Assembly: GCA_963717145.1 (NCBI GenBank)
Contig: OY970325.1
Location: forward strand, 3,168,001 to 3,232,000
Direction: 5' to 3'
DNA: 64,000 bases
Origin: an uncultured Armatimonadetes bacterium
Lineage (GTDB): Bacteria; Armatimonadota; UBA5829; DTJY01
The stretch's first letter is position 1. Every line of letters starts with the position of its first letter. This document shows positions 32,590 through 58,344 of the stretch, one piece after another. The position numbers and the translations under genes were made by a program. The notes beneath the pieces were generated by a model. The model saw only the letters and a program-made list of their open reading frames with translations, was not told the origin of the DNA and searched no databases.

Positions 32590-32681
32590 GGAGCGGTGTC
32601 CGAGTTGGTCTAAGGAGCACGACTGGAAATCGTGTAGCGGGGATAACTCGCTCGTGGGTTCGAATCCCACCCGCTCCGCCA
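32590..32681 (+). tRNA. tRNA-Ser(GGA)
   Basis: GGAGCGG/CCGCTCC acceptor stem, CACGA-CTGGAAA-TCGTG anticodon arm, long variable arm, GGTTCGAATCC, encoded CCA. Confidence 0.96.
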
Positions 32682-33611
32682 TTATCCCCTTTGCTGCCTG
32701 CCACAGTCCGATACTTCGGCGCGGATGACCTCCAGGGCGTGAGGGAGGATCGTCCGAAGAAGAGCCGAGCCCTCCTCGACCGCACGTCTGCTTCCCGGTA
32801 GATTGATGATGAGCGTCCGACCCCGCAATCCGCTCACTCCTCGGGAAAGGCACGCGTAGGGCGTGTGGCGCATTCCCTCCTGCCTCAACGCCTCCGATAT
32901 CCCCGGCGCGGGCGATTCGATGACCGCGAGCGTCGCTTCGGGCATTCGATCTCTCTCGGCAAGACCGGTACCCCCGGTCGTGAGAATGACGTCGACGGCG
33001 CATCGGTCCGCCAGGAATGTCAGTCTCTCGCTCAGAAGGCGTTCATCGTCGGAGAGGACGCTGTAGTCGGCAAGTGCGACGCCCAGGTCCTCGAGCAGGC
33101 CGACGAGCACGGGACCGCTCTCATCCTCCCGCTCGCCTCTCGAACATCGGTCGCTCGACGTGAGGACCGCGCCCACTTTCAACGCGGTCGGTTCGATCGA
33201 ATCGCCCGGTGAAATGCCCCCGCCGCGGAGGACTTTCGCGAACACGCCTTCCCGGGGCATAATGCAGTCCCCCAGGCGCTTGCCGATGCTGCACGGCGAA
33301 TGGCACACCTTCCCGATCTCGGAGATCTGGAGGATCGTCTCGCCCACCTGCAGCCGGGGTCCGATGCCCATCGAGATCAGGTCGATGCCCTGGACGGTCA
33401 AGTTCTCGCCGAAGTCGCCAGGGTTCAACTCCATTCCCTTGGCGCGCCCCTTGTCGATCGATTCCTCTGAGAGCAGGCTCACCTGCTTGCCCGCACCGAA
33501 GTGAGCGTCGCCCTCGACACCCTGACCGGCGACAAGGGTCACAGTGGCGGTCGGTAGCTTCTTCTCGCCCTTATTCGGAGCTGTGTTAACGGAGACTACT
33601 CTGCCTTGCAT
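32682..33611 (-). CDS. MOSC domain + MogA/MoaB molybdopterin adenylyltransferase fusion
   Basis: GDAH, PGDFGENL, CIMPREG; then SDRCSRGEREDESG, TTGGTG, INLPGS. Confidence 0.9.
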   Translation of the reverse strand: MQGRVVSVNTAPNKGEKKLPTATVTLVAGQGVEGDAHFGAGKQVSLLSEESIDKGRAKGMELNPGDFGENLTVQGIDLISMGIGPRLQVGETILQISEIGKVCHSPCSIGKRLGDCIMPREGVFAKVLRGGGISPGDSIEPTALKVGAVLTSSDRCSRGEREDESGPVLVGLLEDLGVALADYSVLSDDERLLSERLTFLADRCAVDVILTTGGTGLAERDRMPEATLAVIESPAPGISEALRQEGMRHTPYACLSRGVSGLRGRTLIINLPGSRRAVEEGSALLRTILPHALEVIRAEVSDCGRQQRG

Positions 33612-34090
33612 GACTCACCCTCGCGCTCGAAGTGTCCGCTCTTTCCGCCTGCTTTCTCGACGAGACGGATATCGCTGATCGTCGCCTCCCGGTCTATCGC
33701 CTTCACCATGTCGTATATGGTGAGTGCCGCGATCGAGACGGCGACGAGCGCCTCCATTTCGACGCCGGTGCGCCCGTGACACGAGACACGCGACTCGATC
33801 TCGACACTCGATCGATCGGCGCACAGTGTAAGTCCTATTTCCACGCTGTCCAGGGGGAGACTGTGGCACAGCGGAATGAGTTCGTCGCACCGCTTGGCGG
33901 CCATGATGCCGGCGATTCGAGCGGTGGAGAGGACGTCACCCTTGGCGACACGGTTCTCGGCGATGGCATCGAGTGTCGGCTGACGGACATAGACCGTTCC
34001 CCGAGCCCTCGCATAGCGCTCTGTGATCGGCTTCTCTGAGACATCCACCATTCGGGCCTTTCCACTCTCATCGACGTGCGACAATTCCAT
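33596..34090 (-). CDS. moaC: Cyclic pyranopterin monophosphate synthase
   Basis: LSHVD, MVDV, LIPLCH, TGVEMEAL, TIYDMVKA, GGKSG. Confidence 0.96.
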   Translation of the reverse strand: MELSHVDESGKARMVDVSEKPITERYARARGTVYVRQPTLDAIAENRVAKGDVLSTARIAGIMAAKRCDELIPLCHSLPLDSVEIGLTLCADRSSVEIESRVSCHGRTGVEMEALVAVSIAALTIYDMVKAIDREATISDIRLVEKAGGKSGHFEREGESCKAE

Positions 34091-34109
34091 GATTCGTCTC
34101 CCTTGCGAC

Positions 34110-34192
34110 CCTTGATTCCCGTAGGGGCGATCCTTCAACGGTCGCCATTTCGACGGGCGACCGTTGAAGGATCGCCCCTACGGGAATCAAGG
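34110..34192. repeat. GTAG-type REP doublet, family A
   Basis: CCTTGATTCCCGTAGGGGCGATCCTTCAACGGTCGCC...GGCGACCGTTGAAGGATCGCCCCTACGGGAATCAAGG. Confidence 0.87.
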
Positions 34193-34926
34193 CTACAACA
34201 ACTTGACCGCAGCAGTCACGAGAACTGCTGCGAGTACTCGACACAGCGTCAAACTGGAGAAGGTCCTGGCTCCAAGGCTGGACCCAGCAGTCCTCCGGCC
34301 AACGCGGCCAACGGCAGTACGGGAACGATACCGAAGTCTGCATTGTGGCTTATCACCCGACTGCCGAGGCCCGCAATCGAGTTCACGACGATGAAGAACG
34401 CCGATGTCGCGGCAATCTGCTTTGCATTTCCCCACCGCGCGAGCAGCGCCACGGGACTCAGGAAGATCCCGCCTCCGATTCCTACGATTCCCGACAGAAG
34501 CCCTATGAAGCCGCCAAGCGGTGCGGCCAGGGGAAGTCGAGGGGGACGAACCTCCCCCTTACCTATCAAGGGATTCAGCAGTCCGGACAAGCGGACCGCC
34601 GCCACGATCAGCGCAAAGGCAAGAAGCAGCGAATATGCCCTCTCCGGCACATCGATCGCCCCTCCGATAACGGCCCCTGGTATCGACAGCACGATGAACG
34701 GCCAGGTGAGACCAAGGCTGAAATGCTTCGAGTGACAGAAGCTGAGGCAGGCAGTCCCGGCTACCAGGATATTCAGCACCAGAGCCGTCGTTGCCATCTC
34801 AGCGCGTGGTATCGCAAGCAGAGAGAGAACCGCCAGATAGCCGGATGCTCCACCGTGCCCGACGGAAGAGTAAAGCGCTGCGACCGCAAATATCAGTATC
34901 GGCGCCCAGATCGGTAATCCGTCCAT
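34193..34926 (-). CDS. TauE/SafE-family transporter (missing base near 34283)
   Basis: YSSVGHGGASGY, GIGGGIFLSP, ATSAFFI; the last helix lies in the frame ending at 34193. Confidence 0.87.
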
Positions 34927-34929
34927 GAT

Positions 34930-36150
34930 TCACTCGAAGAAGATGATTTGCAGGTCTTGACCCGACGCCACGTCGCCGGAATGCTCAGGAATCACGACGT
35001 ATGAGTTCGCGCCGACCATCGAACTCAACCTGCCCGAGCCCTGCATCCCGGCGGGAGTCGCAACGTACCTGCCGTTCTCCCATTTCGTCGTCGCCCGGAC
35101 GAACTCCCGGACGCCGGGTTTGTGCCTGACGTTGCAGGTCACGGAACCTGAGACGGTCGCGTAAGTCGCGGACTCGACCCCCATCATGCGCCCGATCGCC
35201 GGGCGTACGAACAGGTCGAATGTCACCATCGACGAGACCGGATTGCCTGGAAGCCCGAAGAGCGGCACGTCCCCGATGCGACCGTAGGCGAGCGGCTTCC
35301 CCGGCTTCACGGCGACCTTCCAGAACCGCATCTCGCCGAGCTTGGCCAGCGTCTCCTTGACGAAATCGTAATCGCCTACCGACACACCGCCCGATACGAT
35401 GATCAGATCGGAAACCGCCGCTGCCGATGTCAAGACGCGCTCGAGTTCATCCCGCTCGTCGATGACCCGCGCGGTCAGCGACACCTCCGCGCCTGTCTGG
35501 AGCACCTGCCCGGAGAGAGAGTACTGGTTGCTGTTTCGTATCTGGCCGGGACCCGGAGATTCCGATACATCGACTAACTCGTTGCCCGAGGTGATGACCG
35601 CCACTCTGGGCTTCCTGTACACCATCACCTGAGCCTTCCCGAGGGCAGCCAGCATTCCCATCTCAGCGGGCCTGACGCGGACGCCTGACCTCAAGACCAG
35701 CTCGCCACGCTTGACATCTTCTCCCGCGGGCCTGACATTCCATCCCTGCCCGACTTCTCGGAGGATACGAACCGCTCCCTCACGGCGCTCAGTATCCTCC
35801 ACCATGATGACGGCATCGGCGCCTTTGGGAACGGGCGCGCCGGTCATGATCCGAACCGCCGTGCCCGGAACGACTACCTCGCTCACCATGACGCCGGCCG
35901 GCGCTTCCGCGATGACTCGCAACTCCCTCAGCGAGTCCTTCCCCGCCCCGACGGTGTCCGCGGCGAGAACGGCATACCCATCCATCGCCGAGTTGTCGAA
36001 GGGCGGGAGGTCACCGTCGGCCCGGATGTCCTCCGCCAGGATTCGGCCAAGGGCGTCCCCGAGGGCGACTACCTCAGAGCCGAGCTTGGGGGTGCTGCTC
36101 AGTATGGTCTCCAGGGCCGCGTCAGGACTCATGGGCGCGTTGTCGTGCAT
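34930..36150 (-). CDS. moeA: Molybdopterin molybdotransferase
   Basis: PPFDNSAMDGYA, IMTGAP, SGGVSVGDYD, KPGKP, LPGNPVS. Confidence 0.96.
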   Translation of the reverse strand: MHDNAPMSPDAALETILSSTPKLGSEVVALGDALGRILAEDIRADGDLPPFDNSAMDGYAVLAADTVGAGKDSLRELRVIAEAPAGVMVSEVVVPGTAVRIMTGAPVPKGADAVIMVEDTERREGAVRILREVGQGWNVRPAGEDVKRGELVLRSGVRVRPAEMGMLAALGKAQVMVYRKPRVAVITSGNELVDVSESPGPGQIRNSNQYSLSGQVLQTGAEVSLTARVIDERDELERVLTSAAAVSDLIIVSGGVSVGDYDFVKETLAKLGEMRFWKVAVKPGKPLAYGRIGDVPLFGLPGNPVSSMVTFDLFVRPAIGRMMGVESATYATVSGSVTCNVRHKPGVREFVRATTKWENGRYVATPAGMQGSGRLSSMVGANSYVVIPEHSGDVASGQDLQIIFFE

Positions 36151-37200
36151 CTATCCTCCAACCGAACACATCGCGTCGGCCTGAATGGCGCTGATCATCG
36201 ACGACGCCTCTGAGAGCTTGTGGCAACCGAGCCGGGAGAGCAATTCGCCCAACCTGGCGATCAAGTCCCGTTCGTGCAATATCGGGCGGAGGTCCGCCTC
36301 GATCGGGAGTCGCAGGCACGGCTTCAGCGCGCCTGAGGAGGTGACACGGACGCGGCTGCATCGGTCGCAGAAGGGCTCGGACATCGGACTGATGATACCG
36401 ATCGCGCCTCGTCCACCGGGAATGGAGTACAGACGCGCCGAGGAGCCCCTCTCACCGGGCATCGGCGTCAGATCGCCGAGGATCTCACGGATCTCCTCGG
36501 CCCCGACATACATGGCCTGCCATTCTGTCTCACAGCGCTGTAGGGGCGCGCCTTGTGCCGCCTGGTATCCGGTTGCGGGCGGCACAAGGCGCGCCCCTAC
36601 GGCGTGAGCCTGGCCTGCCAGCGGCATCAGCTCGATGAAGCGAACGTCCACGGGCATCGTCCTCGCCAGGTTCGCGATGGCCGGCAGTTCCCCGTCGTTG
36701 ATCCCTCGCATCACGACCGTGTTGATCTTCACCTTGTCGAAGCCGCACTGCACGGCGGCTTCGATACCGCTGAGGACCTCCTGGAGACGATCCTGGCCGG
36801 CTATCCGGCGGAAGGTCTCGGGGTTCAGCGTGTCGAGGCTGATGTTGACCGCCTGCAGCCCTGCGCCCCTGAGTTCTGAGGCAAGCTGAGGAAGCCGAGT
36901 GCCATTGGTGGTGAGCGCAACCGTTTCGATCCCCGGCGTGCGGGCAATGCTCCTCACTGTCTCCACGACATCGTCTCTTACGAGGGGCTCGCCACCCGTC
37001 AGTCGGACCTTGGTGATGCCGTTTTGGGCAAACGCATCGACCAGGATGGCAATCTCGGACGCCGATAGAGAATCGTCAGGCGTGACCGGCTGCTCACCGG
37101 GTCTGCAGTACGTGCAGCACAGGTCGCATCGGTCCGTTATCGAGAGCCGCAGATAGGTGCTCTTCCGCGACTCCAGGCTCAAGTGGGAGAGTTGCCGCAT
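36151..37200 (-). CDS. moaA: GTP 3',8-cyclase with in-frame palindrome insertion
   Basis: YLRLSITDRCDLCCTYC, TGGEPL, RFIELMP, FCDRCSRVR, C-terminal GG. Confidence 0.94.
   Translation of the reverse strand: MRQLSHLSLESRKSTYLRLSITDRCDLCCTYCRPGEQPVTPDDSLSASEIAILVDAFAQNGITKVRLTGGEPLVRDDVVETVRSIARTPGIETVALTTNGTRLPQLASELRGAGLQAVNISLDTLNPETFRRIAGQDRLQEVLSGIEAAVQCGFDKVKINTVVMRGINDGELPAIANLARTMPVDVRFIELMPLAGQAHAVGARLVPPATGYQAAQGAPLQRCETEWQAMYVGAEEIREILGDLTPMPGERGSSARLYSIPGGRGAIGIISPMSEPFCDRCSRVRVTSSGALKPCLRLPIEADLRPILHERDLIARLGELLSRLGCHKLSEASSMISAIQADAMCSVGG
36536..36604. repeat. GTAG-type REP doublet inside moaA
   Basis: GTAGGGGCGCGCCTTGTGCCGCC-N15-GGCGGCACAAGGCGCGCCCCTAC. Confidence 0.85.
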
Positions 37201-37210: not shown

Positions 37211-37864
37211 TCAACCGCGTGAGACCATTATACCCCGGCGCGGGAAAGGGATCAATTCCATTGAGGCGGATGAGCACACATCGATGAAGGCCCGGTTTGC
37301 GGAGTCACGAGGAAGGAGCATTGGATGCACCGGGATCACCCTCCCTGTGTTTCTGAGCAGACTCGAAGGATCGCCGGCCGCGTGACCGGTGGGAACATTC
37401 AGTGCCACCAGATCGATCCGGTCGAGACACCTTAGCGCAGACGGTTTGACCTCCTCCACGCCCCCTCTCGCCACGAGAACGTTCAATCCATTGAGCAGAG
37501 GAATCGCAGTCGTGCTCTCGACGATGACTCCCGGTGCGTCCGATAGCTGGTCGAGCGCCGACTCCAGGGCGGCCGGAAGTGACTCCGGGAGCGAGCGTAT
37601 CCACAGGACGCGGTCCGCTCCGGCCTCGAGTAACAGAGCGGTGTCCTTGCCCCGACGGGCGATGGCCGTCGGGTCGGCGATGACCGCGAAGGGCCCGTCA
37701 GGAGGCGAACACGCGCCGCAGTCCTGGCCGTGCGGGCAGATCTCGTCGGGAAGAGAAGGGGTGACCTTGATCGCGGCCCAGCCGGGAAAGGCCCTGAGCA
37801 GCAGAGCAGCCACCGCTGTCTTACCGCAGTGAGCTGAAGCTCCGCCAATGCAAATCAACTTCAA
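37211..37864 (-). CDS. MobB-like P-loop protein with Cys cluster
   Basis: GGASAHCGKT, CPHGQDCGAC, GKDT..LLEAGA, VIVES. Confidence 0.6.
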   Translation of the reverse strand: MKLICIGGASAHCGKTAVAALLLRAFPGWAAIKVTPSLPDEICPHGQDCGACSPPDGPFAVIADPTAIARRGKDTALLLEAGADRVLWIRSLPESLPAALESALDQLSDAPGVIVESTTAIPLLNGLNVLVARGGVEEVKPSALRCLDRIDLVALNVPTGHAAGDPSSLLRNTGRVIPVHPMLLPRDSANRAFIDVCSSASMELIPFPRRGIMVSRG

Positions 37865-40557
37865 TTTGAAACAACCTCCACAACAGCGGCCGCAACCTTG
37901 TACTCCGCCGTCTTTGTAATCGGATCATGGGCATCCGTCGTCAGCTCGTTTGCCGCCGATTCGGCAAAATGGAACGGCATCCAGATCTGGCCCGGCCTCA
38001 CCTTCTTCGTCGCCCACGCGCGCGCCGTGATGCTTCCCCGTCGAGTGCTCACCCGAAGCATTTCCCCGCTCTGAGCGCCGAGCTGCTCGAGGTCGCGCGG
38101 ATGGATCTCCACAAAGCAGTCCGGCGACTTCTCAGCCATCCCCTTGACCCTGCGCGTCATCGTCCCAACGTTGTAGTGATATAGGATTCGGCCCGTCGTG
38201 AGCAGCCATGGATACTCCGAATCGGTCGGCTCACTCGGCGGCGAATACTCGACCGGCGCGAACTTGCCGAGACCACAGGCGAACCCATCCTCGTGCAGGC
38301 ATACTGTTCCGGGATGCTCCTCATGCGAGCACGGCCACTGAAGGCCGATCTTGTCGATTCTGGGGTAGTTGACACCTGCCAGCATCGGCGAAAGGGCCGC
38401 TACTTCGTCCCATATCTTCTCAGGAGAAGCGAATCTCATGTCCCCGCCCAGTCGGTTGGCGATCTCCATGATCACGCGCCAGTCCTCGCGCGCCTCACCC
38501 GGCGGCTCGACCGCCTTCCGAACGCGTTGGACGCGGCGTTCGGTATTGGTGAATGTGCCGTCCTTTTCCGCGAAACACGATGCCGGAAGGACCACATCGG
38601 CGATCTTGGCCGTCTCGCTCATGAATATGTCCTGGACCACAAGGAACTCCAGGTTGCCGAAAGCTTGCCGCACGAAGCTCGAATGGGCCTCGGACATCAC
38701 GGGGTCCTCCCCCATGACGTAAACGGCCTTCAGTCGGCCCGCAGCGGCCTCCTCCATCATCTCAGTGATCGTCAGCCCGGTCGACGTGGGCAGCGGCTTG
38801 CCATAGGCTTCCTCGAACTTCCGGCGGTTCGCCTCGACGGCGACCTTCTGGTAACCGGGGTACATGTCCGGCATTGCACCCATGTCGCACGCGCCCTGCA
38901 CGTTGTTCTGCCCTCTGAGCGGGTTGATTCCGCTGCTCGGCTTGCCGATCTGACCGGTGAGAAGCGCCAGGTTCGCGAGCCCTCGGACATTGTTGGTGCC
39001 GCAGGTGTGCTCGGTTATCCCGAGGGTGTAATAGATCGCCCCGCGGTCCGACTGAGCGTACAACCGTGCCGCTTTGCGGATATCATCCGCCGGCACTTCG
39101 CACATCTCCGCCGCGCGCTCGGGCGGCCACTGCTCGACGATCTTGAGGAACTCCTCGAATCCTTCCGTGCGCGACTTGATGAACTCCTCGTTCGCCAGGC
39201 CCTCGTGGACTATGACGTGCGCCATCCCGTTGATCAGCGCCAGGTCGGTGCCCGGGCGGATCGGCAGATGGATCGCCGCGATCTTGGTCAGCCATATCTT
39301 GCGGGGGTCGGCGACGATCAGTGTTGCGCCGTTGCTGACGGCCTCCTTGATCTTGAGACCGATGATCGGATGCGCCTCAGTCGGATTAGCCCCGATGACG
39401 AACAGCACGTCGGCGTCCGCTATCTCACCGATCGAGTTCGTCATCGCCCCGCTTCCGAGTGAAGCGGCCAGACCGGCCACTGTGGGAGCGTGTCAAGTAC
39501 GGGCGCATTGGTCAACGGAATTCGTTCCGATGACCGCACGCGCCAACTTCTGCATAAGATAGTTCTCTTCGTTCGTACACCGGCTGGAACTCATGAGGCC
39601 GATGGCATCCGGGCCGTCCGCTGCCTTGATCTCCTTCAACCGACCCGCCACGAGATCGAGGGCCTCGTCCCATGAAGCCGGCCCAAGCTCTCCATCGCGC
39701 CGGATCAGCGGAGTGGTAAGACGGTCCGGATGATGGATGAACTCGTAGCCGAACCGACCCTTCACGCACAGCCATCTGCCGTTTACCGGGTTGTCGGTGG
39801 CCGATGTGACACCGACTACGCGACCATCCCTCACGTTCAGGTCGAACTGACAGCCGACTCCGCAATAGCCGCAGGTTGTGCGAACCTTCTTCGCTCCCAC
39901 GAGGCCGACCATCCGGCGGGCCATGACGGCGCCTGTCGGGCAGACGGCGATGCAGTTGCCGCACAGTTCGCACTCGGACTCCTCACGGACGAGCCCAGGG
40001 GGGAGACCGATCTCGGTATCGAAGCCGCGCCCCTGGAAGTCGATCGCTCCGGCCTGCTGCACGTTCTGGCATACCAATACGCACCGACCGCACAGGATGC
40101 ACTTGCTGTTCTCCTCGGACATCATCGGAGCATCTTCGGATACCGTGTGGGAGGAGACTCCAGTCGGCGATGCCTTTCTCTCGCGGAGGCCGAACTCGTA
40201 CGCATACTCCTCAAGAACACATTCGCCGGATGTATCGCAGGTCGCGCAGTCATGCGGGTGGTCCGAGAGCAGCAGTTCGAGCACCGTCCGACGGAACCCG
40301 CGGAGGGCCTCGGTGTCGGTGTGAACGACCATTCCCGGAGACACCGGATGGGTGCATGACGCGACGGGACTAGGCCCGGCTTCAACCTCGACCAGACACA
40401 GACGGCACGAAGCGGTCGGCGGCAGGCCGAGGTCTGGGTCGTAGCAAAGATGAGGGATGTCGATGCCCGCTCTCCGGGCGGCTTCGAGGATCGTCATGCC
40501 GACGGAAGCGGTGACCTCTCTGGAATCGATCGTCAGCGTAATCTTGTTCTCAGTCAT
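37861..40557 (-). CDS. fdhA: Selenocysteine formate dehydrogenase alpha subunit
   Basis: Two ORFs in one frame joined by TGA at 39493-39495 in CART-U-HAPTVAGL; FeS N-terminus, CGYCGVGC, LRGQNNVQG, molybdopterin dinucleotide-binding C-terminus. Confidence 0.93.
39464..39495 (-). promoter_or_regulatory. Sec codon and bacterial SECIS hairpin
   Basis: TGA-12 nt-GTGGCC-GGTCT-GGCCGC, like the fdhF SECIS. Confidence 0.8.
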
Positions 40558-40576
40558 TATTCTCTCCGAGTTGCAC

Positions 40577-40614
40577 CACCGTGAGTCCTGAGTGCGCCGG
40601 TGAAGACTGACGGT
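40577..40614. repeat. Internally deleted derivative of the 20170-20286 element
   Basis: CACCGTGAGTCCTGAGTGCGCCGGTGAA joined to GACTGACGGT. Confidence 0.75.
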
Positions 40615-40647
40615 TCAGTGGGCTGCTAAGAAGCACAGTGCCCCTAC

Positions 40648-43600
40648 CTATTCCTCAAGATCGCAGCGCAGACAGCGGCGGGCCTCGAGGCACGCCGTCT
40701 CAGCCGAGTAGCCATGTACGACCTCATCGAAGACACAGGCGCGCTCCCGGGGCGACAAGTGGCACACCGCCTGACGGGGTACAGCCCCATACTCCTCATC
40801 CGGTTTGGCATCCGTCGCAAGTGCGGTGTCAGCGGGCAGCTCGCCACTCCCACCGAGGTAGACATCTATCGCCTTTGCCGCTTTCTGGCCGGCAGCTATG
40901 GCCTCGATTATGGTCGCCGGGCCGGTCACTGCATCACCACCGGCGAACACCTCGCCCTCGCCCGACCTCTGGGAAACCGGATCGGCGACGATGCGACCAC
41001 GTGCTACAACCAGGCGTCCGTCCGTTTGGGCAAAATCGAGTTCCGGCCCCTGGCCGATCGCCATAATCACGTGGTCCGCCTCGATCAGTACATCGAAATC
41101 CGGCTTCGGGATCGGGCGACGCCGACCGCCCTCATCTGCGTCCCCCAGCATCATTTCCTGACAGCGCACGGCTTGAACGCGCCCGGATCCTTCAATGGCG
41201 ACAGGTGCGACGAGTGTATGCAACTCGACGCCCTCCGCCAGCGCGTCCTCGATCTCTTCGCTGAGCGCCGGCATCTCTTCCCGAGTGCGCCGGTACAGTA
41301 TGGTCACGGGCCCCGCACCGAGTCTCAGGGCGGTGCGAGCAGCATCAATGGCAGCGTTGCCTCCGCCTATGACAACTACTCGCCCAGACAATTCCTTGAT
41401 CTCGCCGACGATCGCCTGGCGAAGGAAGGACAGCGCATCGTGCACGCCCTTCATCTCTTCGCCCGGGATGCCGAGCGTCGTGCTCTTGTGCGCTCCGGTT
41501 GCCACAAAGACCGCATCGAACCCCGCAAGCGATTCGAGCGACTCGATCCTGTGCCCAGTCTCGATCTCGACGCCTGCGCGCACGATATAGTCGATATCCC
41601 GCTGCAGGACCTCTTTCGGCAGACGATATGGTGGAATCCCGACGGCCAGCAGGCCGCCGACAGCGTCGAGGGCTTCGAATATCTTGACCTCGTGACCCAT
41701 GATGGCAAGGAAATATGCGGCAGTGAGGCCCGCCGGGCCCGAACCGATGACCGCCACCCTGCCCCTGCGCGGCCCTGTCCACGTGGGCGGATGGCCAGAA
41801 TCGGTGACATGATCGGTCACGAAGCGCTTCAACTGCCTGACTGCCACGGGCGCATCGATGTCGCCGCGCCTGCAGAACACCTCACACGGATGATCGCATG
41901 CACGGCCGCAGACCGAGGGCAGCGGGTTGCGCCGACGGATCACGTCGAGCGCCTCCGCGAACCTTCCCTCGGCGATCAGTCCCACATACTCGGGAACGTT
42001 CACGTGCGCGGGACAGGCGCTCGAGCACGTGGTGGTGATCAGCGCCTCGCACGAATTTGCCGGGCAGCGCTTCTCGATGATGTGGGCTTCGTATTCATCG
42101 CGGAAATAGCGGATCGTTGACAGGACCGGATTCGCAGCGGTCTGGCCGAGGCCGCACAAGGAGGCTCTCCGTATGGCCTCTCCAAGCTTTTCGAGTTCAT
42201 CTATGTCAGAAAGCTCGCCCTCGCCCTGCGTGATCCGGGTCAGGATCTCGAGCATTCGCTTCGTGCCGATCCGGCATGGGACACACTTGCCGCACGATTC
42301 CCTCTGAACGAAGTCCGCGAAGAAGCGAGCCATGTCCACCATACAGGTGGCTTCGTCCATGACGATCAGACCACCCGATCCCATGATCGCGCCGACCTGC
42401 TTAACCGAATCATAGTCGATCGGTAGATCAAGGTACTGCGCGGGAACGCATCCACCGGAGGGGCCGCCCATCTGGACAGCCTTGAACTTGCGATCGCGGG
42501 GGATGCCGCCGCCGATGTCGAACACGATCTGGCGCAGAGTGGCGCCCATCGGCACCTCGACGAGCCCCGTGTTTCTGACCTTGCCGGCAAGGGCAAAGAT
42601 CTTGGTGCCCTTGCTGCCCTCGGTCCCGAAGCTTCGGTAGTAGTCCTTGCCCTGAAGAATAATGATCGGCACATTTGCGAGCGTTTCGACGTTGTTGATA
42701 TTCGTGGGCTTGCCCATGAAGCCGCTTATCGAGGGAAACGGCGGGCGGGGGCGGGGCATACCTCGCCTGCCCTCCAACGAGGCAATGAGTGCGGTCTCTT
42801 CGCCGCAGACGAATGCGCCGGCGCCTCGGTCGATCTCGATATCGAAGTCGAAGCCCGTTCCCAGGATATCTGTTCCCAGTAGGCCACATTCGCGCACCTG
42901 GTCGAGGGCTATCTCGGTGTTCTTTACCGCAAGAGGATACTCCGCCCGGACGTAGATGATGCCCTTCGCCGCCCCGATTGCATAGCCCGCGATTATCATG
43001 CCTTCGAGGATTGCGTGAGGGGTGCCTTCAAGGAGGCTGCGATCCATGAAAGCGCCGGGGTCGCCTTCGTCGGCGTTACAGATGAGGTACTTGGGCTCAC
43101 CGACTGCCTTTCGACAGAAACCCCACTTTACGCCCGCGGGGAAGCCTGCTCCACCTCGGCCCCTCAGCCCGGCCTCACGGACTTCATCGATCACCTGTTC
43201 CGGCGTCATATCACAGAGGGCCTTGGCCGCAGCAGCATAGCCGCCGCGAGCGACGTAGTCCTCGAGGCTGATCGGGTCCAGTATGCCGTTGAGCCGAAAG
43301 ACGATTCTCTGCTGTCTCGCATAGAACGGCACTTCGTGGTCATGGACGATCTTACGGTCGGTAGCCGGATCGACGTAGAGGAGCCGCTCGATGACTTCAT
43401 CCGACAGAACAGTCCGCTCGACGATCTCGGGCACATCTTCGGCCTGCACACTCGGGTAGAAGACTTTGGCGGGGAGGATGACGACGACCGGCCCCTTTTC
43501 GCAGAAACCATGGCATCCCGTGATCTTGACGGGGATATCGCATTCGAGTCCGCGTCTCTTGATCTCATCCTCGAATGCCTTCTTCACTCCGGAAGCTCCG

Positions 43601-43716
43601 AAAGCGACGCAGCCGGTCCCGCCACAGATGGTGACCATCTTCCGGTCGGAGCTGATCTCTGCCTTCAGCCGGTCCTGCCACTCCCGGAAAGCCGATGCTG
43701 AGGAAGCCTGCTTCAT
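40648..43716 (-). CDS. NuoF/HydB-like NADH-FMN subunit fused to a GltD/NfnB-like FAD-NAD(P)H module
   Basis: GRGGAGFP, CNADEGDPGAFMDR, VCGEETAL, ESCGKCVPC; then CGRACDHPCE, GSGPAG, GGGNAAID, YRR, EARRCLRC. Confidence 0.92.
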   Translation of the reverse strand: MKQASSASAFREWQDRLKAEISSDRKMVTICGGTGCVAFGASGVKKAFEDEIKRRGLECDIPVKITGCHGFCEKGPVVVILPAKVFYPSVQAEDVPEIVERTVLSDEVIERLLYVDPATDRKIVHDHEVPFYARQQRIVFRLNGILDPISLEDYVARGGYAAAAKALCDMTPEQVIDEVREAGLRGRGGAGFPAGVKWGFCRKAVGEPKYLICNADEGDPGAFMDRSLLEGTPHAILEGMIIAGYAIGAAKGIIYVRAEYPLAVKNTEIALDQVRECGLLGTDILGTGFDFDIEIDRGAGAFVCGEETALIASLEGRRGMPRPRPPFPSISGFMGKPTNINNVETLANVPIIILQGKDYYRSFGTEGSKGTKIFALAGKVRNTGLVEVPMGATLRQIVFDIGGGIPRDRKFKAVQMGGPSGGCVPAQYLDLPIDYDSVKQVGAIMGSGGLIVMDEATCMVDMARFFADFVQRESCGKCVPCRIGTKRMLEILTRITQGEGELSDIDELEKLGEAIRRASLCGLGQTAANPVLSTIRYFRDEYEAHIIEKRCPANSCEALITTTCSSACPAHVNVPEYVGLIAEGRFAEALDVIRRRNPLPSVCGRACDHPCEVFCRRGDIDAPVAVRQLKRFVTDHVTDSGHPPTWTGPRRGRVAVIGSGPAGLTAAYFLAIMGHEVKIFEALDAVGGLLAVGIPPYRLPKEVLQRDIDYIVRAGVEIETGHRIESLESLAGFDAVFVATGAHKSTTLGIPGEEMKGVHDALSFLRQAIVGEIKELSGRVVVIGGGNAAIDAARTALRLGAGPVTILYRRTREEMPALSEEIEDALAEGVELHTLVAPVAIEGSGRVQAVRCQEMMLGDADEGGRRRPIPKPDFDVLIEADHVIMAIGQGPELDFAQTDGRLVVARGRIVADPVSQRSGEGEVFAGGDAVTGPATIIEAIAAGQKAAKAIDVYLGGSGELPADTALATDAKPDEEYGAVPRQAVCHLSPRERACVFDEVVHGYSAETACLEARRCLRCDLEE

Positions 43717-44225
43717 TGGCGTCCCTCCTCAGCGATCCGCTCCAGTATCTCCTGGACCCGCCGCGGAGTCGCTTTGCCGTAGTAGTTGCTGTCGACAACC
43801 ATCACCGGGGCGAGAGCACAAGCGCCGAGACATGCAACCGTTTCGAATGTAAACATCATGTCGTCAGTGGTTTGGCCGTCGTCGATTCCCAGTGCACATC
43901 TCACGCTGTGGATCACGCTCTTACCTCCACGAACGTGGCACGCGGTACCTCGGCAGCAGCGGATGGTATGTCGCCCACGCGGCTCAGTATAGAACTGAGC
44001 GTAGAATGTTACCACACCGTAGATGCGGCTGAGCGGGATATGGGTTCGGACGCTGATCTCTTCCAGAGCCGAAGGAGGCAGGAAGCCGAATCGCTCCTGA
44101 ACGCCCTGGAGGACGGCGATGAGGTTCGATTCGTCCGTCACATTCAGTTCGTCGAGGTGGGCGAACACGTCGTTATCATCGGGCAATCTGCTTCCCGCAG
44201 ACTCATCGACTGCCTGGTTTGCCAT
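43713..44225 (-). CDS. NuoE/HydC-like 2Fe-2S subunit
   Basis: YGVVTFY, CRGTACHVRG, ACLGAC. Confidence 0.93.
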   Translation of the reverse strand: MANQAVDESAGSRLPDDNDVFAHLDELNVTDESNLIAVLQGVQERFGFLPPSALEEISVRTHIPLSRIYGVVTFYAQFYTEPRGRHTIRCCRGTACHVRGGKSVIHSVRCALGIDDGQTTDDMMFTFETVACLGACALAPVMVVDSNYYGKATPRRVQEILERIAEEGRQ

Positions 44226-44805
44226 GTGAGCTATTCCTCCGGAGCGCTTCCTGATAGGCCTCTGGTGTGTTGATATTCAGAAAACTGAGCAGTTCCGGAT
44301 CGAGCGATCTCAGATCATTCTCGGGCACGTACACTGTGTCGACTCGATCGAGCAGGTCTCGCATCCTGAGAATGCCTGCCTCGAGATTCGCCTCCACCTG
44401 GGGCAGACACGATCTCCGATACGCCGCGTGAAGCGGCTCGATTCCATTCTCCAACATCGGCACGACCGCTTCATGTCGGTCCAGCAGGGAGAGCACATAG
44501 CGGGCCACTTCAGTATCCGCAAACGGCATGTCGCAGGCGAGGACGAAGTTTGCGGCATCCGGTGATGCGGTCAGCCCCGCTTGCAGGCCGCCGAGCGGGC
44601 CCTTTCCCTCATAGGAATCGTACACGAGGGTGGCATTCTCCACATCCAGGTCCTGCCCGGGTCTCGCGACCACTATGACCGGGCCGAATTCGCCGGCGAA
44701 CCTCGTGACAAGGGCCTGGAGGATCGTGGACCCGTCCATCTCGAGGGACGCCTTGTCCCGGCCCATGCGCGCGCTCGTGCCGCCTGAAAGGATGATGGTT
44801 GCCAT
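44203..44805 (-). CDS. mobA: Molybdenum cofactor guanylyltransferase
   Basis: LSGGTSARMGRDKA, GPLGG, ACDMPF, NINTPE. Confidence 0.94.
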   Translation of the reverse strand: MATIILSGGTSARMGRDKASLEMDGSTILQALVTRFAGEFGPVIVVARPGQDLDVENATLVYDSYEGKGPLGGLQAGLTASPDAANFVLACDMPFADTEVARYVLSLLDRHEAVVPMLENGIEPLHAAYRRSCLPQVEANLEAGILRMRDLLDRVDTVYVPENDLRSLDPELLSFLNINTPEAYQEALRRNSSHGKPGSR

Positions 44806-44810: not shown

Positions 44811-46480
44811 CTAGAACAGGCCGTAGATCTCGCCGTCGGGCTTCATGCCGATCTTGACCGCGGCCGGTACTTTCGGAAGTCCCGGCATCGTCATGATGCT
44901 TCCGGCGTAGATCACCACGAATCCTGCGCCGGCACTGACCTTCGCCTCCCGTACCCCGATCTTGTAACCCCTCGGGCGTCCGGCGACCTTGGGATCGTCG
45001 GACAGGGAGTTCTGGGTCTTGGCGATGCAGACCGGCAGCTTCCCGAAACCGAGCGCGGTGATCTGACTGATCTGCTTCTCGGCGGCCGGAGCAAAATCCG
45101 CGCCATCCGCACCGTAGAACTGGCGCGCGACCGCCTCGACCTTCTCCTTGATGGACATATCCAACGGATATGCCGGATGGAAGGTCGATTCGCCCTCACA
45201 TGCCTTCAGCACGAGTTTCGCGAGTTCGATGCCGCCCTCGCCGCCCTTCGCCCAGACATCCGAGAGCGCCCATGTCGACACCGGTCTCCTTGCAGCACTC
45301 CGAGAGAGCCTCGATCTCTTCGTCCGTGTCGGTCGGGAACTTGTTGATGGCGACGATCGGGTCGAGGCCGACATTCCGCACGTTGTCGCAGTGCTTCTCG
45401 AGGTTCTCGATGCCCTTCAGCACAGCCTCCGGATTGTTGGCCTTGAGATCGGCGAGCGCCACCCCACCGTGCATCTTGAGCGCGCGGATCGTGGCGACGA
45501 CGACAGCGGTCACCGGCATCAGTCCGGCTGAGCGGCACTTGATGTTGAAGAACTTCTCCGCGCCGAGGTCGCTCCCGAAGCCGGCCTCTGTGACCATATA
45601 GTCGGCAAGCTTCAGGGCCATGCGTGTGGCGATCACCGAATTGCATCCGTGAGCGATGTTGCCGAACGGTCCGCCGTGTACGAACGACGGGGTGCCTTCC
45701 AGCGTCTGGACCAGGTTCGGGACGATGGCGTCCTTCAGGACGACGGTCATCGCGCTGCTCGCCTGCAGGTCCTTCGCGGTGACCGGCTGACCGGCCTTGT
45801 TGAGCCCGACGACGACACTCGCGAGCCGTCTCTCGAGGTCCGCTCGATCCGTCGAGAGGCAGAGCAGAGCCATTATCTCCGATGCGGTCGTTATATCGAA
45901 TCCGGACTGGCGGGGGATACCGTTCCCCTTGCCGCCGAGACCGATCACGATGTCCCTGAGCGCCCGCTCGTTCATATCCATGACGCGCTTCCAGGTGATC
46001 GAGTGGAGGTCTATGTCCAGCGGATTGCCCTGGTGGATGCTGATTATCGAGCATGGCCGAGAGCAGGTTGTGGGCGGTCGTGATCGCATGGAAATCACCG
46101 GTGAAGTGCAGGTTGATGTCGGCCATCGGGACGACCTGAGCATATCCTCCGCCGGCCGCGCCGCCTTTGACGCCGAAGCACGGCCCGAGTGACGGTTCCC
46201 TGAGCGCCAGGCAGGTGGACTTCCCGAGCTTGCGAATGGCATCAGCGAGACCGATCGCAGTGGTGGTCTTTCCCTCGCCGGCCGGAGTCGGAGTGATGGC
46301 GGTAACGAGAATCAGCTTGCCATCCTTCTTGTCCGCATTTCGATCTAGCAGATCGAGAGTGATCTTGGCTTTGTCGGCTCCGTAGAATACCAGGTCCTGT
46401 TCGGACAGATTCAGGTCTGCGGCGACATCTCTTATGTGCCGGGGCTTCGCCTGCTGGGCGATCTCGACGTCGGTTAGCAT
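44811..46480 (-). CDS. fhs: Formate--tetrahydrofolate ligase (frameshifts near 46043 and 45270)
   Basis: [47 protein letters not shown] spread over three frames. Confidence 0.93.
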
Positions 46481-46508
46481 AGGTGGAATCCTCCTCGGAT
46501 GGTAAAGG

Positions 46509-46925
46509 TTATTTCTCGTCTTTTTTCAGCTTTTTGCTGAAGGACATCTTCTCGATCTTTCCGGCAAACATGTTCATCCAGGCGCTGGTATGCTCGAGCC
46601 GCCTGTCCACGGGGATATGGTACTTCCTGAGCTTATCCTCCCAGCCAAGCTTCCTGGCGCGCTCGTTGATGAGCCACCATATGCAGGCCTGATCCTCGTG
46701 GACCTCGCAGTGACCGTCGGCCCTCGTACCTCCACACGGCCCGTTTCGAAGCTGCTTGGGGCACCTCATGCAGCAGGTAAACGCGTTATAGCTCAAGACG
46801 CACTGCCCACAGTCCTGGCATCGAAACACAGGCTTCTTGAACACATTCTCGCTGAGTAGAACGCACTTGTACAATGTCGGGTGCCGCTCGGTGAATGCGG
46901 CTACTCTCTCTGACAGCTTGCTCAT
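46509..46925 (-). CDS. metV: MetV-like subunit (MTHFR C-terminal Cys-rich domain)
   Basis: [22 protein letters not shown]...CIW; TAATG overlap with metF. Confidence 0.8.
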
Positions 46926-47881
46926 TATGCTACCGCTCCTGTCGGTTCCGGCTCGGTCTCGATCGGCTTCAGGGTCGGTCGAGGCAGGAGCCCCGCTCCG
47001 TCGACGATCGACTTCGTGATCGATTCCCACATCACGGGCATGATGTGAACGCCGCTAACGCCGGGGATCTCCTTGAGTTGCTTGATGGTCTCGATGCAGA
47101 TACTCACCCCTTCGTCCTTCGGCTCCTGAGCGGATTTCATGCGGGTGATGTACTCGGGCGCGATCCTCATGCCGGGGACGCTGTCCCTCATGTACTCCAG
47201 GGCCTTCGCCGACTTGACCGGCATGACGCCCGCAAGGATGAAGATCTCCTTGTCGAAGCCTTCGTCCCTTACGGCCGACATCCATTTCTCGAACCGGGGC
47301 ATATCGAACACCGGCTGCGTCTGGATGAAGTGCGCGCCGGCCTGGATCTTCTTGTACAAGTTGAGGATGCGCATGTTGAACGGCTCGCCGAACGGATTCG
47401 CCGCTCCTCCGATGAACATCGCGGGCGGCGGCTTTATCTCGTCCCCGGAGAGGAACTTCGCATCGTTCATCCCGGCCACCGTGTGAATAAGCTGAACCGA
47501 GTCGAGATCGAAGACTCCCTTGGCATCGGGGTGGTTGCCGAAAGACTGGTAATCACCGGACAGGCAGAGAAGGTTCCTCACACCCGCTGCATATGCCCCG
47601 AGGATGTCCGACTGCTGAGCGAGCCGGTTCCGATCTCGACAAGTCATCTGCATGATCGGCTCGATCCCGCCCTCGACCGCAAAGGCGCTGCTCATGGCCG
47701 AACTCATACGGACGATCGCCGTCTGGTTGTCGGTGAGATTCACGGCATCGACGACGTTGCGGAAATACTCGCATTTCTTGAGAATAGGCGCCTTATCGGC
47801 TCCCTGCGGAGGACTCATCTCACCGCAGACCGCGAAGTGCCCTTCTCTCAACATCCGTTCCAGATTACTACCTGATATCAT
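46925..47881 (-). CDS. metF: Methylenetetrahydrofolate reductase
   Basis: NLTDNQ, QMTCRDRNR, LSGD, KKIQAGAHFIQTQ. Confidence 0.94.
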   Translation of the reverse strand: MISGSNLERMLREGHFAVCGEMSPPQGADKAPILKKCEYFRNVVDAVNLTDNQTAIVRMSSAMSSAFAVEGGIEPIMQMTCRDRNRLAQQSDILGAYAAGVRNLLCLSGDYQSFGNHPDAKGVFDLDSVQLIHTVAGMNDAKFLSGDEIKPPPAMFIGGAANPFGEPFNMRILNLYKKIQAGAHFIQTQPVFDMPRFEKWMSAVRDEGFDKEIFILAGVMPVKSAKALEYMRDSVPGMRIAPEYITRMKSAQEPKDEGVSICIETIKQLKEIPGVSGVHIMPVMWESITKSIVDGAGLLPRPTLKPIETEPEPTGAVA

Positions 47882-47929
47882 CTATTTCGCCCCCTGGTCA
47901 CTCTTTGCTGACCATGTGATATGTCACAC

Positions 47930-48151
47930 TCATTCATCGCCCGTGAAATCGATGCACTCCTTCGCGTACGGACACCATTTCGCGCAGCCCAGGTCCAGAC
48001 ACGGATTCTTGAACCTCGTGCCACATTCCGGACACGCGCGCGAGCGGTCGTCCTTGAAGAACTCCACCTTGGCGCCGCACTTGGGACACGGCTGCTGCCG
48101 TATGTCGTCGATCTTCCAGAAGCGGCTATCCTGGCCGGGACACTTTACCAT
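47930..48151 (-). CDS. Small Cys-rich zinc-ribbon/FeS protein
   Basis: CPGQD, CPKCG, EFFKDD, CPECG, GCAKWCPYAKEC. Confidence 0.78.
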   Translation of the reverse strand: MVKCPGQDSRFWKIDDIRQQPCPKCGAKVEFFKDDRSRACPECGTRFKNPCLDLGCAKWCPYAKECIDFTGDE

Positions 48152-48163
48152 ATTGATCCAACT

Positions 48164-49270
48164 CTACACCAAAGAAGCCCACAGGGACTCCAGGTCGACA
48201 TGCTCCCGAATGAGGCTCGTTGCCAGGCAGGTCTTCTCCTCATCGGAAACGCGGGTCTTGACAGTCATATCGTGTATGCGCGAGGCCACGTCATATGTGC
48301 GCTCTCCGGTTGTGAGCACAGGAATACTTGTGCGCTGAACGAGGTCCATGGTTGACGGCTGTGGCAGCAACCCGCCTGTGAGAACAATCCCCGCCAGCTC
48401 GATGTCTTTTCTGAGCAAGTCGGTGGTGACGATGGCAAATATGACGTCGTCCCGATCGCCCGGGACGATCAGCAGCGACTTGTCCTGCACGTACTTAAGT
48501 GCATTGTAGGCCGTCATGGCGCCGATAATGATGTCTGCAATCGGATTGGCCAGTCTGTCCGCTCCGTTGATGACCGTGGCGCCGATGCTTTCCGCCACCT
48601 GCATCACCGTGGGCCACGACAGGCGTGGGGCGTATGGAACTACACCAAGCAGCTTCAGCCCCATTCTTTCAAACGACTTCGACAGATAGTAGCGGGTCTG
48701 ATCGAGCTTCTCGGGCAGCACCTTGTTGACTACTACGCCAACGACAGGGACTCCCTCCTTCTCGAAGAGACTGCAATTCACCGCGACTTCATCGACCGGA
48801 CGGCCTATGCCGCCGAGCGTCACGATGACGGCCTTAGCGTTTAGAAGCTTGGCGACGTGAGCATTCGACATGTTAAACACAGAGCCCACGCCTGCATGTC
48901 CGCTGCCTTCGATCACCACCAGATCATTGTTCCTGGAGGCTACTGCATATGAATCGCGGATCGATTTTTCCAGTTTAGGGAGTTCGATCTCCGGATTCTC
49001 GATGTACTTGCGGGTAAAATCGGGCGTGACCGCAACAGGACTCATGTCTTTGAGCGGATAATCGAGGTCACAAGCCTGCTGAATGAGCAGTGCGTCCTCA
49101 TCGATCATCTGGTCGTCGACTTCGACATACCGCTGCCCGACCGGCTTCATGAAGCCTACAGACTTCGTAAGATCACTGAACCCGCGAACAAACCCCAGGC
49201 TGCATGTGGTCTTGCCGTCATTCTGGTTGGTCGCTGCCACGAATAAGCGCCGTTCGATCTTGTTTATCAT
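48164..49270 (-). CDS. BioD-like P-loop + DRTGG protein (homologous to the N-terminal part of long Pta)
   Basis: NQNDGKTT, FMKPVG, IEGSGHAGVGS, PGDRDD, LTGG. Confidence 0.87.
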   Translation of the reverse strand: MINKIERRLFVAATNQNDGKTTCSLGFVRGFSDLTKSVGFMKPVGQRYVEVDDQMIDEDALLIQQACDLDYPLKDMSPVAVTPDFTRKYIENPEIELPKLEKSIRDSYAVASRNNDLVVIEGSGHAGVGSVFNMSNAHVAKLLNAKAVIVTLGGIGRPVDEVAVNCSLFEKEGVPVVGVVVNKVLPEKLDQTRYYLSKSFERMGLKLLGVVPYAPRLSWPTVMQVAESIGATVINGADRLANPIADIIIGAMTAYNALKYVQDKSLLIVPGDRDDVIFAIVTTDLLRKDIELAGIVLTGGLLPQPSTMDLVQRTSIPVLTTGERTYDVASRIHDMTVKTRVSDEEKTCLATSLIREHVDLESLWASLV

Positions 49271-49271
49271 G

Positions 49272-49958: not shown

Positions 49959-50009
49959 GACACCGACCTCCAGCCCTCACACGGCGAAGTCACGATCGGA
50001 GGAGGGCAC

Positions 50010-50801: not shown

Positions 50802-50835
50802 TCGATTGTCCTCCGTTGTTTGATTGGAATTCTTG

Positions 50836-51804: not shown

Positions 51805-51818
51805 TTTCTATTCTCCCT

Positions 51819-54523: not shown

Positions 54524-54542
54524 CAGTTACAGACCGTCGATT

Positions 54543-55877: not shown

Positions 55878-55910
55878 GGTTTCCTCCAGGTCTGATTTTA
55901 TTGTATCTAG

Positions 55911-56050
55911 GCAGGGGCGAAGCATTGGCTACCGGCATCAGTGGACGCTGTCATTCTGAGCGAAGTGAAGAATCTGGCTTCTTCAGCCGGTTGCCAGATT
56001 CTTCACTTCGCTCAGAATGACAGCGTAGGCAGCCAATGCTTCGCCCCTAC
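55911..56050. repeat. Nested palindromes: GTCATTCTGAGCGAAG element inside a G(T/C)AGGGGCG REP
   Basis: Outer arms 55911-55933 / 56028-56050; inner arms 55945-55978 / 55993-56026. Confidence 0.88.
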
Positions 56051-56063
56051 AGGAATGCGTGTT

Positions 56064-58245: not shown

Positions 58246-58344
58246 GAACTTGAATCTCCTCTACCGCCCGTAGGGCTCCATTATTGAAGACGCGCGGTTT
58301 CGCCGCATGGCTCACCCGTAGCGCCAATAATCAGTATATCCATC

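Follow-up and report, generated by a model that had tools for sequence, protein, structure and literature searches.

Electron-bifurcating enzymes of the Bfu type are currently defined by ferredoxin as their low-potential partner, and the mechanism by which they work is still debated. In NfnABC of C. saccharolyticus (Csac), the low-potential path runs from cluster C1 to B3 and on to B4, and in Stn a Zn ion stabilizes the linker to the C-terminal ferredoxin-like domain, the proposed ferredoxin site. The B2 site is now taken as Zn (Schut 2022, PMC9304861; Li 2025), and its His ligand is reported to be missing from non-bifurcating homologues (Schut 2022, PMC9304861). In the purified formate dehydrogenase (FDH) Fdh3 of T. 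onnurineus, the preference for nicotinamide adenine dinucleotide phosphate (NADP+) is reported to come from a GltD/NfnB-like subunit with an RR motif, and the RR pair is described as the ligand of the 2'-phosphate in this subunit, Fdh3B (PMC8965080). The locus described here lies in the DNA of an uncultured Armatimonadetes bacterium (GCA_963717145.1, contig OY970325.1, positions 3,168,001-3,232,000; this 64,000-nt stretch as a whole is called the window below) and very probably encodes a cytoplasmic selenocysteine FDH that is built on a BfuBC core and has a GltD module in the place of the ferredoxin domain.

The locus consists of three tightly packed genes for a NuoE-like protein, a NuoF-GltD fusion and FdhA; an earlier sequence-only reading had placed it at 37861..44225, and the open reading frames (ORFs) were found exactly there on the minus strand. 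The NuoE-like protein has the ligands of the C1 [2Fe-2S] cluster (CxxxxC...CxxxC), and the stop of its gene overlaps the ATG of the fusion gene.

Two halves of the fusion and the FDH subunit

In Pfam, the first half of the fusion matched the thioredoxin-like 2Fe-2S family at residues 25-101 (E 9e-6), Complex1_51K at residues 179-350 (3e-46), SLBB, and NADH_4Fe-4S at residues 461-545 (5e-36), together with nuoF_fam of NCBIfam at residues 147-546 (503 bits), while the second half matched Fer4_20 (PF14691) at residues 553-639 (1e-22), Pyr_redox_2 (PF07992) at residues 653-943 (3e-33), and the NCBIfam entry PRK12771, an NAD(P)-binding protein, at residues 516-1018 (490 bits). These matches confirm the composition first assigned to the 1022-aa subunit from its letters, namely, a thioredoxin-like 2Fe-2S domain, a flavin mononucleotide (FMN)/NADH domain, a 4Fe-4S motif and a GltD-like flavin adenine dinucleotide (FAD) domain. 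The AlphaFold2 model of the fusion has a mean predicted local distance difference test score (pLDDT) of 86.3 and a predicted template modelling score (pTM) of 0.71.

By its sequence, the NuoF half belongs to the electron-bifurcating HydB/BfuB type, with all the signatures of that type but the C-terminal 2x[4Fe-4S] ferredoxin domain. Against all PDB sequences, residues 25-562 scored 663-778 bits with bifurcating B subunits, including NiFe-HydB (7t2r_B, 778 bits), FeFe-HydB (7q4v, 8a6t, and 7p5h), StnB (8oh5), Csac NfnB (9bov), and T. sibiricus (Tsi) NfnB (9n5u), compared with 416 and 361 bits for the non-bifurcating FdsB chains, so that the likeness to HydB noted in the sequence-only reading holds. 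A gap-free alignment with a constant offset of 21 places D195, A201, M203, F281, and E286 of Tsi NfnB at D216, A222, M224, F302, and E307 of the fusion; bifurcating members are reported to keep these residues and non-bifurcating ones to lack them, with NADH selected by E286 (Xiao et al. 2025). With a constant offset of 20, C438, T/C476, H525, C531, and C536 of A. mobile HydB correspond to C458, T496, H545, C551, and C556. In the family alignment of 75 sequences (27 of the 120 listed proteins and 48 of the 59 clean full-length locus translations), D216, A222, M224, F302, E307, and GGPSGG (G417-G422) are invariant or at least 90% conserved, and the B1 ligands C475, C478, C481, and C521 as well as the B2 ligands C458, H545, C551, and C556 are invariant. 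In the B5 site, C68 and C72 do not vary, and C31 and C36 are conserved to 90% or more. The motifs that had been singled out earlier (ADEGDPGAFMD, GGPSGG, GGGNAAxD, and YRR) are all present, and they are invariant in the 75 family members; chance does not account for these features. The 2x[4Fe-4S] B3/B4 domain is absent, and Fer4_20 and Pyr_redox_2 follow instead from residue 563; the fusion is therefore a Bfu-derived variant and not a canonical BfuABC member.

The GltD half belongs by sequence to the Stn/NfnABC subtype, which is recognized by a Lys-ligated cluster, a permuted sequence, and the YRR NADPH motif. Residues 563-1019 scored 396, 370, and 332 bits with the GltD inserts of Csac NfnA, Tsi NfnA, and StnC, respectively, and 307 and 288 bits with NfnB of T. 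maritima and P. furiosus. At the proximal cluster, Lys630 stands where NfnB has Glu and corresponds to K170 of both StnC and the Csac protein; the ligands of the GltD clusters align with C108, C147, C151, and K170 of Csac NfnA and do not vary across the family. The Rossmann domains align with 9bov_A, 8oh5_C, and 4ylf_B, R698 corresponds to R239 of StnC, and the motifs on the NADPH side, GGGNAA and Y808-R809-R810, are invariant in the 75 sequences, as are C1015 and C1018, which together with C564, C603, and C615 are assigned to the distal GltD cluster. The last 35 residues are circularly permuted relative to NfnB, appearing as second HMMER domains at residues 11-43 of 4ylf_B and 15-48 of 5jca_L, and the same permutation is found in residues 103-566 of StnC. 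In GltD modules of the Stn/NfnA type, the FAD is reported to transfer electrons without bifurcating them (Kumar et al. 2023; Xiao et al. 2025), and any bifurcation would therefore take place at the FMN core.

FdhA is composed of two ORFs of 354 and 539 aa in the same frame, joined by TGA. It scored 883 bits against TIGR01591 (cut-off 666) and matched PF00384, PF01568, and PF04879; its NuoG-like N-terminus has the ligands for one [2Fe-2S] and four [4Fe-4S] clusters and is followed by a molybdo/tungstopterin domain. The best PDB matches are to FdsA (9wxb_B and 6tg9_A), with FdsA-type relatives at 782-794 bits. The Cys/Sec-His-Arg set reported as the catalytic triad of FDHs (PMC8965080) is found as U355-H356 and the Arg of RGQNN. 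The TGA aligns with the Cys of CARxCH in 23 downstream FdhA genes and with a TGA in two further loci (L038 and L039), and SelB is encoded in the source genome (383 bits; cut-off 242). The hairpin after the TGA was no better than shuffled sequence (z -0.63) and an Rfam search of the sequence after the TGA gave no family match; the predicted selenocysteine therefore rests on the alignment with relatives and on SelB.

Junction and distribution of the fusion

Three related loci (L054, L061, and L067) have a non-fused NuoF that is 66-69% identical over residues 14-568, and the FdhA that adjoins it downstream is 55-56% identical. Fused and non-fused proteins run parallel through ...YFRxEYEAHIxxxxCPxxxCxxL (H-x5-C-x4-C-x-AL) and then diverge, the non-fused ones into a classical CxxCxxCxxxC...CxxCxxCxxxC ferredoxin domain and the fusion into TCSSACPAH..., the first GltD cluster motif. 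The GltD module thus begins where these relatives carry their 2x[4Fe-4S] domain, in agreement with the earlier claim that it takes the place of the C-terminal ferredoxin of HydB. Only seven residues lie between the Zn ligand C556 and the cluster ligand C564; given this spacing, the Zn linker and the C1-B3-B4 path, the GltD clusters would be tethered at the usual position of B3 and B4. In a quick maximum-likelihood tree of the NuoF parts (81 rows, support by the Shimodaira-Hasegawa-like approximate likelihood ratio test, SH-aLRT, midpoint root for drawing only), L061 and L067 fall inside a four-row clade with the fused L009 and L010 (support 100), and L054 is placed next to the fused L023 (support 91), within a clade of 19 rows that is otherwise fused (support 96). 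The non-fused sisters are thus nested at two places in the fused FDH clade, which argues that the ferredoxin domain and the GltD module were exchanged more than once while the FDH scaffold stayed the same.

The NuoF-GltD fusion is widespread and not peculiar to the source genome. A protein search gave, among the matches listed, at least 120 clusters with 63-100% identity, all having the NuoF and GltD Pfam domains; most are 995-1058 aa long, and a few are incomplete in length. They are annotated at source as NuoF or FAD-dependent oxidoreductase and nothing else, and the named sources are Planctomycetota, Phycisphaerae, Armatimonadota, and Methylomirabilis metagenome-assembled genomes. In the GTDB species genomes, 213 stretches encode a relative, and the locus counts given here refer to the best 80 of these 213. 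The search for such fusions beside fdhA that had been suggested with the sequence-only reading found 76 of the 80 loci fused, three non-fused and one cut before the junction. An FdhA-type gene lies on the same strand in 65 of the 76 fused loci (26 directly downstream, 37 within 1 kb upstream, and two at 2.0 and 5.2 kb upstream), and nine of the other 11 end at contig ends. A NuoE homologue is directly upstream of the fusion in 71 of the 80 loci by the script rule. In L064 and L086 (L064:6950-12474 and L086:6974-12451), NuoE and NuoF-GltD are followed not by an FDH but by a small NuoG-like Fe-S protein of 216-254 aa and by a protein with the FMN region of glutamate synthase (Glu_synthase, PF01645).

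The loci with FdhA form two clades. The downstream-FdhA clade comes from Planctomycetota, Armatimonadota, Anaerolineales, and others, and its members are 62-73% identical, with two at 54-55%; the catalytic residues are canonical, with 23 having CH and R, one having TGA-H and R, and two being incompletely covered. The upstream-FdhA clade is almost entirely from Dehalococcoidales (loci L041-L088, for instance L042:3912-6545) at approximately 52% identity. At the Cys/Sec position, 31 of its 39 members have Tyr and one has His, two have a gap, four are uncovered, and one has the canonical TGA (L039); Gln mostly replaces the Arg of RGQNN. Even in this clade, as in the other, none of the Fe-S ligands of the NuoG-like N-terminus varies (51-sequence alignment, composed of the window sequence and 50 of 60 N-terminal translations). 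The Dehalococcoidales complex thus appears to resemble Stn in its catalytically dead FDH-like domain, but GltD is on the B subunit and B3/B4 are missing.

Full-text searches of the literature outside subscription-only papers found no account of an FDH with a BfuB/NuoF-GltD fusion. The words 'GltD' and 'fused' do not occur in the main text of Schut 2022 (PMC9304861), whose Supplementary Table 1, with 1,558 BfuB sequences, may hold such fusions. The fusion adds a widespread variant to the Bfu family and does not represent a different kind of system.

Proposed electron routes between formate, NAD(H), and NADP(H)

Judged by sequence, three redox sites are intact, a selenocysteine pterin site, an FMN/NADH site, and an FAD/NADPH site, with a complete set of cluster ligands between them. 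Since the two nucleotide sites are complete and do not vary within the family, they point most naturally to a link with both NAD(H) and NADP(H), which supports the inference drawn in the sequence-only reading. We tentatively favour, with somewhat less than even confidence, a Bfu-derived FDH in which NADP(H) would replace ferredoxin and which would link formate/CO2 to both nucleotides. Electrons from formate would pass through the FdhA clusters to B1 and the FMN, where one pair would leave as NADH, and the other pair would leave through the C1 [2Fe-2S] cluster of NuoE, the two GltD clusters, and the FAD to NADP+. The C1 branch normally reduces ferredoxin; here, its acceptor would have changed to NADP+ with the core mechanism kept, and we infer that a wiring in which nothing but this acceptor is changed is the most economical one. 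The net reaction would be 2 formate + NAD+ + NADP+ <-> 2 CO2 + NADH + NADPH, reversible, and the enzyme would serve the adjoining Wood-Ljungdahl genes, coupling formate/CO2 to both pyridine-nucleotide pools without ferredoxin. That the formation of NADH and NADPH would be obligatorily coupled at 1:1 is proposed with slightly more reserve again.

Several points weigh against this proposal. With formate at -420 mV and in vivo potentials of -280 mV for NAD and -380 mV for NADP (Schut 2022, PMC9304861), the reaction is approximately 90 mV downhill in the oxidative direction, and formate can reduce both nucleotides uncoupled; there is therefore no thermodynamic need for bifurcation. In the other direction, the reduction of CO2 by NADH and NADPH is approximately 90 mV uphill unless formate is very low, which is a poor fit with a role in the reductive Wood-Ljungdahl pathway. 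The homologous GltD of Stn/NfnABC feeds the NuoG-like chain and not the C1 branch. The Dehalococcoidales clade has kept the fusion and lost the FDH catalytic residues, and the fusion therefore does not need formate. Lastly, the frameshifts in fhs, acsB, and cooS nearby make sequence quality or the integrity of the pathway uncertain.

The most probable alternative, though it is judged rather unlikely, is an uncoupled FDH with two coenzymes, in which the FMN and FAD sites would be independent exits or entries on one Fe-S network. Such an enzyme would take whichever of NAD(H) and NADP(H) is available and act perhaps as a slow transhydrogenase, with no obligatory stoichiometry and no energy coupling. 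The downhill oxidation of formate to both nucleotides (potentials from Schut 2022, PMC9304861) agrees with it, as does the reportedly non-bifurcating FAD of the StnC/NfnA module, whose Lys ligand the fusion has in common, and Fdh3 of T. onnurineus is described as a simple NADP-dependent FDH with an NfnB-like subunit (PMC8965080). However, the NuoF part retains all Bfu-specific residues together with the Zn linker, residues which are reported to be absent from non-bifurcating homologues (Schut 2022, PMC9304861; Xiao 2025), and the ferredoxin-type relatives nested in the same clade argue for an unchanged core mechanism.

A reversal of the topology into an Nfn-like CO2 reductase is less probable still. 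NADPH would then be the mid-potential donor, entering through the FAD, the GltD clusters, and C1, and the B1-FMN-C1 site would split the electrons between NAD+ at high potential and CO2 at low potential on FdhA, with the net reaction 2 NADPH + NAD+ + CO2 -> 2 NADP+ + NADH + formate. This direction offers the best energetic fit to a reductive Wood-Ljungdahl role, at approximately +30 mV net (Schut 2022 potentials). It would also account for the Dehalococcoidales clade, which is without a catalytic site and yet has invariant Fe-S ligands in its FdhA-like N-terminus, since the A-subunit chain is expected to be retained if it delivers electrons to a low-potential partner and the fusion is the entry point of NADPH. 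Against it, all solved Bfu enzymes take the mid-potential substrate through the A subunit and B1, with the low-potential exit through C1-B3-B4, and the inverted flow would be unprecedented. If it were true, bifurcation would be free of ferredoxin, an Nfn reaction with CO2 in the place of ferredoxin in which B1-FMN-C1 works inverted, and BfuB-GltD would be a portable driver for an FDH, a glutamate-synthase-like protein, and a degenerate FDH-like subunit.

It is improbable that the GltD module docks as in Stn, packing on the NuoG-like N-terminus of FdhA so that NADPH and formate would share the mid-potential chain with no third branch and the enzyme would amount to an NADPH-FDH to which an NADH site is attached. 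The module belongs to the Stn/NfnA subtype and also has its permuted C-terminal segment, which in StnC continues into the NuoG-like part, and fdhA directly follows the fusion gene in the downstream-FdhA clade; but the seven-residue C556-C564 spacing anchors the Fe-S domain at the B3/B4 position, and the gene order differs in Dehalococcoidales, where the FdhA-like gene is upstream. Finally, decay of the locus into an inactive remnant along with the frameshifted Wood-Ljungdahl genes (fhs split over three frames, acsB and cooS over two each, and hydA elsewhere apparently split) is very improbable, as no cofactor ligand is missing, the three FDH ORFs are unbroken and match their homologues over the full length (100% coverage and 82% identity to P0004), and scattered single frameshifts in a one-contig assembly also look like assembly indel errors.

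The fusion family constitutes a set of natural domain swaps at one junction, in which one FDH scaffold carries a ferredoxin domain in some close relatives and an NADPH-FAD module in others, and so provides a direct test of the C1 branch. If the coupling proposed above is real, electrons from formate would be split between the NADH and NADPH pools, or CO2 would be reduced from pyridine nucleotides alone, free of ferredoxin. Such a route would matter for how many uncultured Planctomycetota, Armatimonadota, and Chloroflexota fix carbon, and for NAD(P)H-driven biocatalysis of CO2 to formate.

Gene neighbourhood and known systems

The features of the locus and its surroundings are collected in Table 1.

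Table 1. Positions in the window of the FDH genes, their domains and sites, and neighbouring genes
Feature	Window position	Strand	Basis or remark
mobA-like molybdenum cofactor guanylyltransferase	44203..44805	-	PF12804 NTP_transf_3, E 1e-33; overlaps start of NuoE-like gene
NuoE/BfuC-like subunit, 170 aa	43713..44225	-	PF01257, E 4e-48; NCBIfam NuoE, 144 bits
BfuB(NuoF)-GltD fusion, 1022 aa	40648..43716	-	Pfam, NCBIfam, PDB-chain alignments, family alignment
N-terminal thioredoxin-like [2Fe-2S] domain (B5 site), residues 25-101	43414..43644	-	Partial PF01257 match
FMN/NADH domain, SLBB, and four-helix bundle with B1 [4Fe-4S], residues 135-546	42079..43314	-	Pfam, NCBIfam, family alignment
Zn (B2) linker H545-x5-C551-x4-C556, fourth ligand C458	42049..42084	-	Swap point of the C-terminal domain
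GltD-type 2x[4Fe-4S] domain, residues 563-640	41797..42030	-	PF14691; Cys 564, 568, 603, 607, 611, 615, and Lys630
FAD and NADPH Rossmann domains, residues 650-955	40852..41769	-	PF07992; GSGPAG, R698, GGGNAA, Y808-R809-R810
C-terminal segment, residues 985-1022, ending C1015-x2-C1018	40651..40764	-	Corresponds to NfnB N-terminal segment
FdhA, 898 aa	37861..40557	-	Pfam, TIGR01591; 90-nt gap after fusion gene
In-frame TGA, predicted selenocysteine 355	39493-39495	-	Alignment with relatives; SelB in genome
P-loop ORF, 217 aa (GGASAHCGKT)	37211..37864	-	4-nt overlap with fdhA stop
Molybdenum cofactor genes moaA, moeA, TauE-like permease, moaC, MOSC-MogA	32682..37200	-	Pfam; downstream of FDH
FAD-dependent NAD(P)H oxidoreductase	58406-59704	-	Within Wood-Ljungdahl cluster
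CooF-like protein	59717-60229	-	Within Wood-Ljungdahl cluster

Upstream on the minus strand, the genes are mobA, fhs, metV, metF, a DRTGG protein, a DUF3786 protein, acsE, acsD, acsV, acsC, and acsB, and the run continues with an FAD oxidoreductase, a CooF-like protein, cooS, and cooC. Flanked by fhs, metFV, and acs genes and by molybdenum cofactor genes, the FDH is therefore that of a Wood-Ljungdahl cluster. This cluster is complete from metV to cooC (window 46509-62960, minus strand), including the DRTGG/AAA_26 protein. The fhs gene (window 44811-46525) is in three overlapping ORFs that cover positions 2-149, 147-415, and 397-556 of the FTHFS profile, corresponding to two frameshifts that are either real or assembly indels; acsB (window 56064-58260) is in two frames with a break near position 35 of the CdhC profile, and so is cooS (window 60226-62215), with a break near position 406-409 of the Prismane profile. 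The three FDH ORFs are intact. The 217-aa P-loop ORF that follows fdhA had no match in Pfam or NCBIfam, and a homologue after fdhA was found in one of the 80 related loci, L017. A tRNA-Ser (GGA) gene on the plus strand (window 32590-32681) adjoins the downstream end of the molybdenum cofactor genes.

The source genome, one contig of 5.37 Mb, also encodes a canonical HydABC-type [FeFe]-hydrogenase cluster (C1:106000-124000, L097) in which HydB is normal, with 594 aa and the ferredoxin domain; Bfu enzymes of the ferredoxin type are thus also in use in this organism. This cluster contains, in addition, a NuoE homologue, a second truncated NuoF-like ORF, an apparently split hydA, a second hydrogenase-like protein with a putative Fe-S domain, and a histidine-kinase ATPase fragment. 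Elsewhere in the genome (C1:2978251-2979529, L004), a GltD/NfnB-like module is joined to part of an HdrA beside an HdrB-like gene; this fusion resembles the HdrA-NfnB fusions of ANME-1 and is in two pieces, so it may hold another frameshift. A 921-aa ORF (C1:4134507-4135814, L005) has an OYE/FadH-like flavoprotein N-terminus and a GltD-like C-terminus.

Among the described systems, the predicted Type 1 Fdh-Bfu enzymes, e.g., of Carboxydothermus hydrogenoformans (PMC9304861), are reported to consist likewise of a NuoE-like, a HydB-like, and a NuoG-FdhA protein encoded by three genes and to have the same Bfu signatures. They end, as do L054, L061, and L067, in the B3/B4 ferredoxin domain, whereas the fusion ends in a 460-aa GltD module for FAD and NADPH.

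StnABC/NfnABC (S. ovata 8oh5, C. saccharolyticus 9bov, and T. sibiricus 9n5u) are composed of the same modules, BfuC, BfuB, NuoG-like, FDH-like, and GltD, and their GltD is the nearest relative of the module in the fusion. Their GltD is inserted in the A subunit after the [2Fe-2S] domain, their FDH-like domain is catalytically dead, and their BfuB keeps B3/B4, whereas the locus described here has GltD on BfuB, an FDH with Sec-His-Arg, and no B3/B4. The remark in the sequence-only reading that Stn has the same parts in another arrangement is thus correct, GltD being inserted in StnC. A collinear domain order in which gene boundaries alone would differ from Stn was considered and rejected, since GltD of StnC is inserted after the [2Fe-2S] domain.

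FdsABG (R. capsulatus 6tg9 and C. necator 6vw7) has the layout of NuoE, NuoF, and NuoG-FdhA in common with the locus and provides the best structural relatives of FdhA. FdsB, however, reaches approximately half the bits of the HydB-type chains and belongs to a non-bifurcating group without the extra BfuB sites, and there is no NADPH module. T. onnurineus Fdh3 (PMC8965080) and Moorella FdhAB (PMC5736913), compared here by their published descriptions only, use an FAD subunit of the GltD family, which has the RR pair, to link an FDH to NADP(H) and are described without a NuoE/NuoF module for FMN and NADH. In ANME-1, HdrA with an NfnB-like insertion (Chadwick et al. 2022, PMC9012536) is reported to have an NfnB-like NADPH module likewise at the ferredoxin domain of a bifurcating enzyme, although that enzyme belongs to a different bifurcating family, the FAD-based HdrA.

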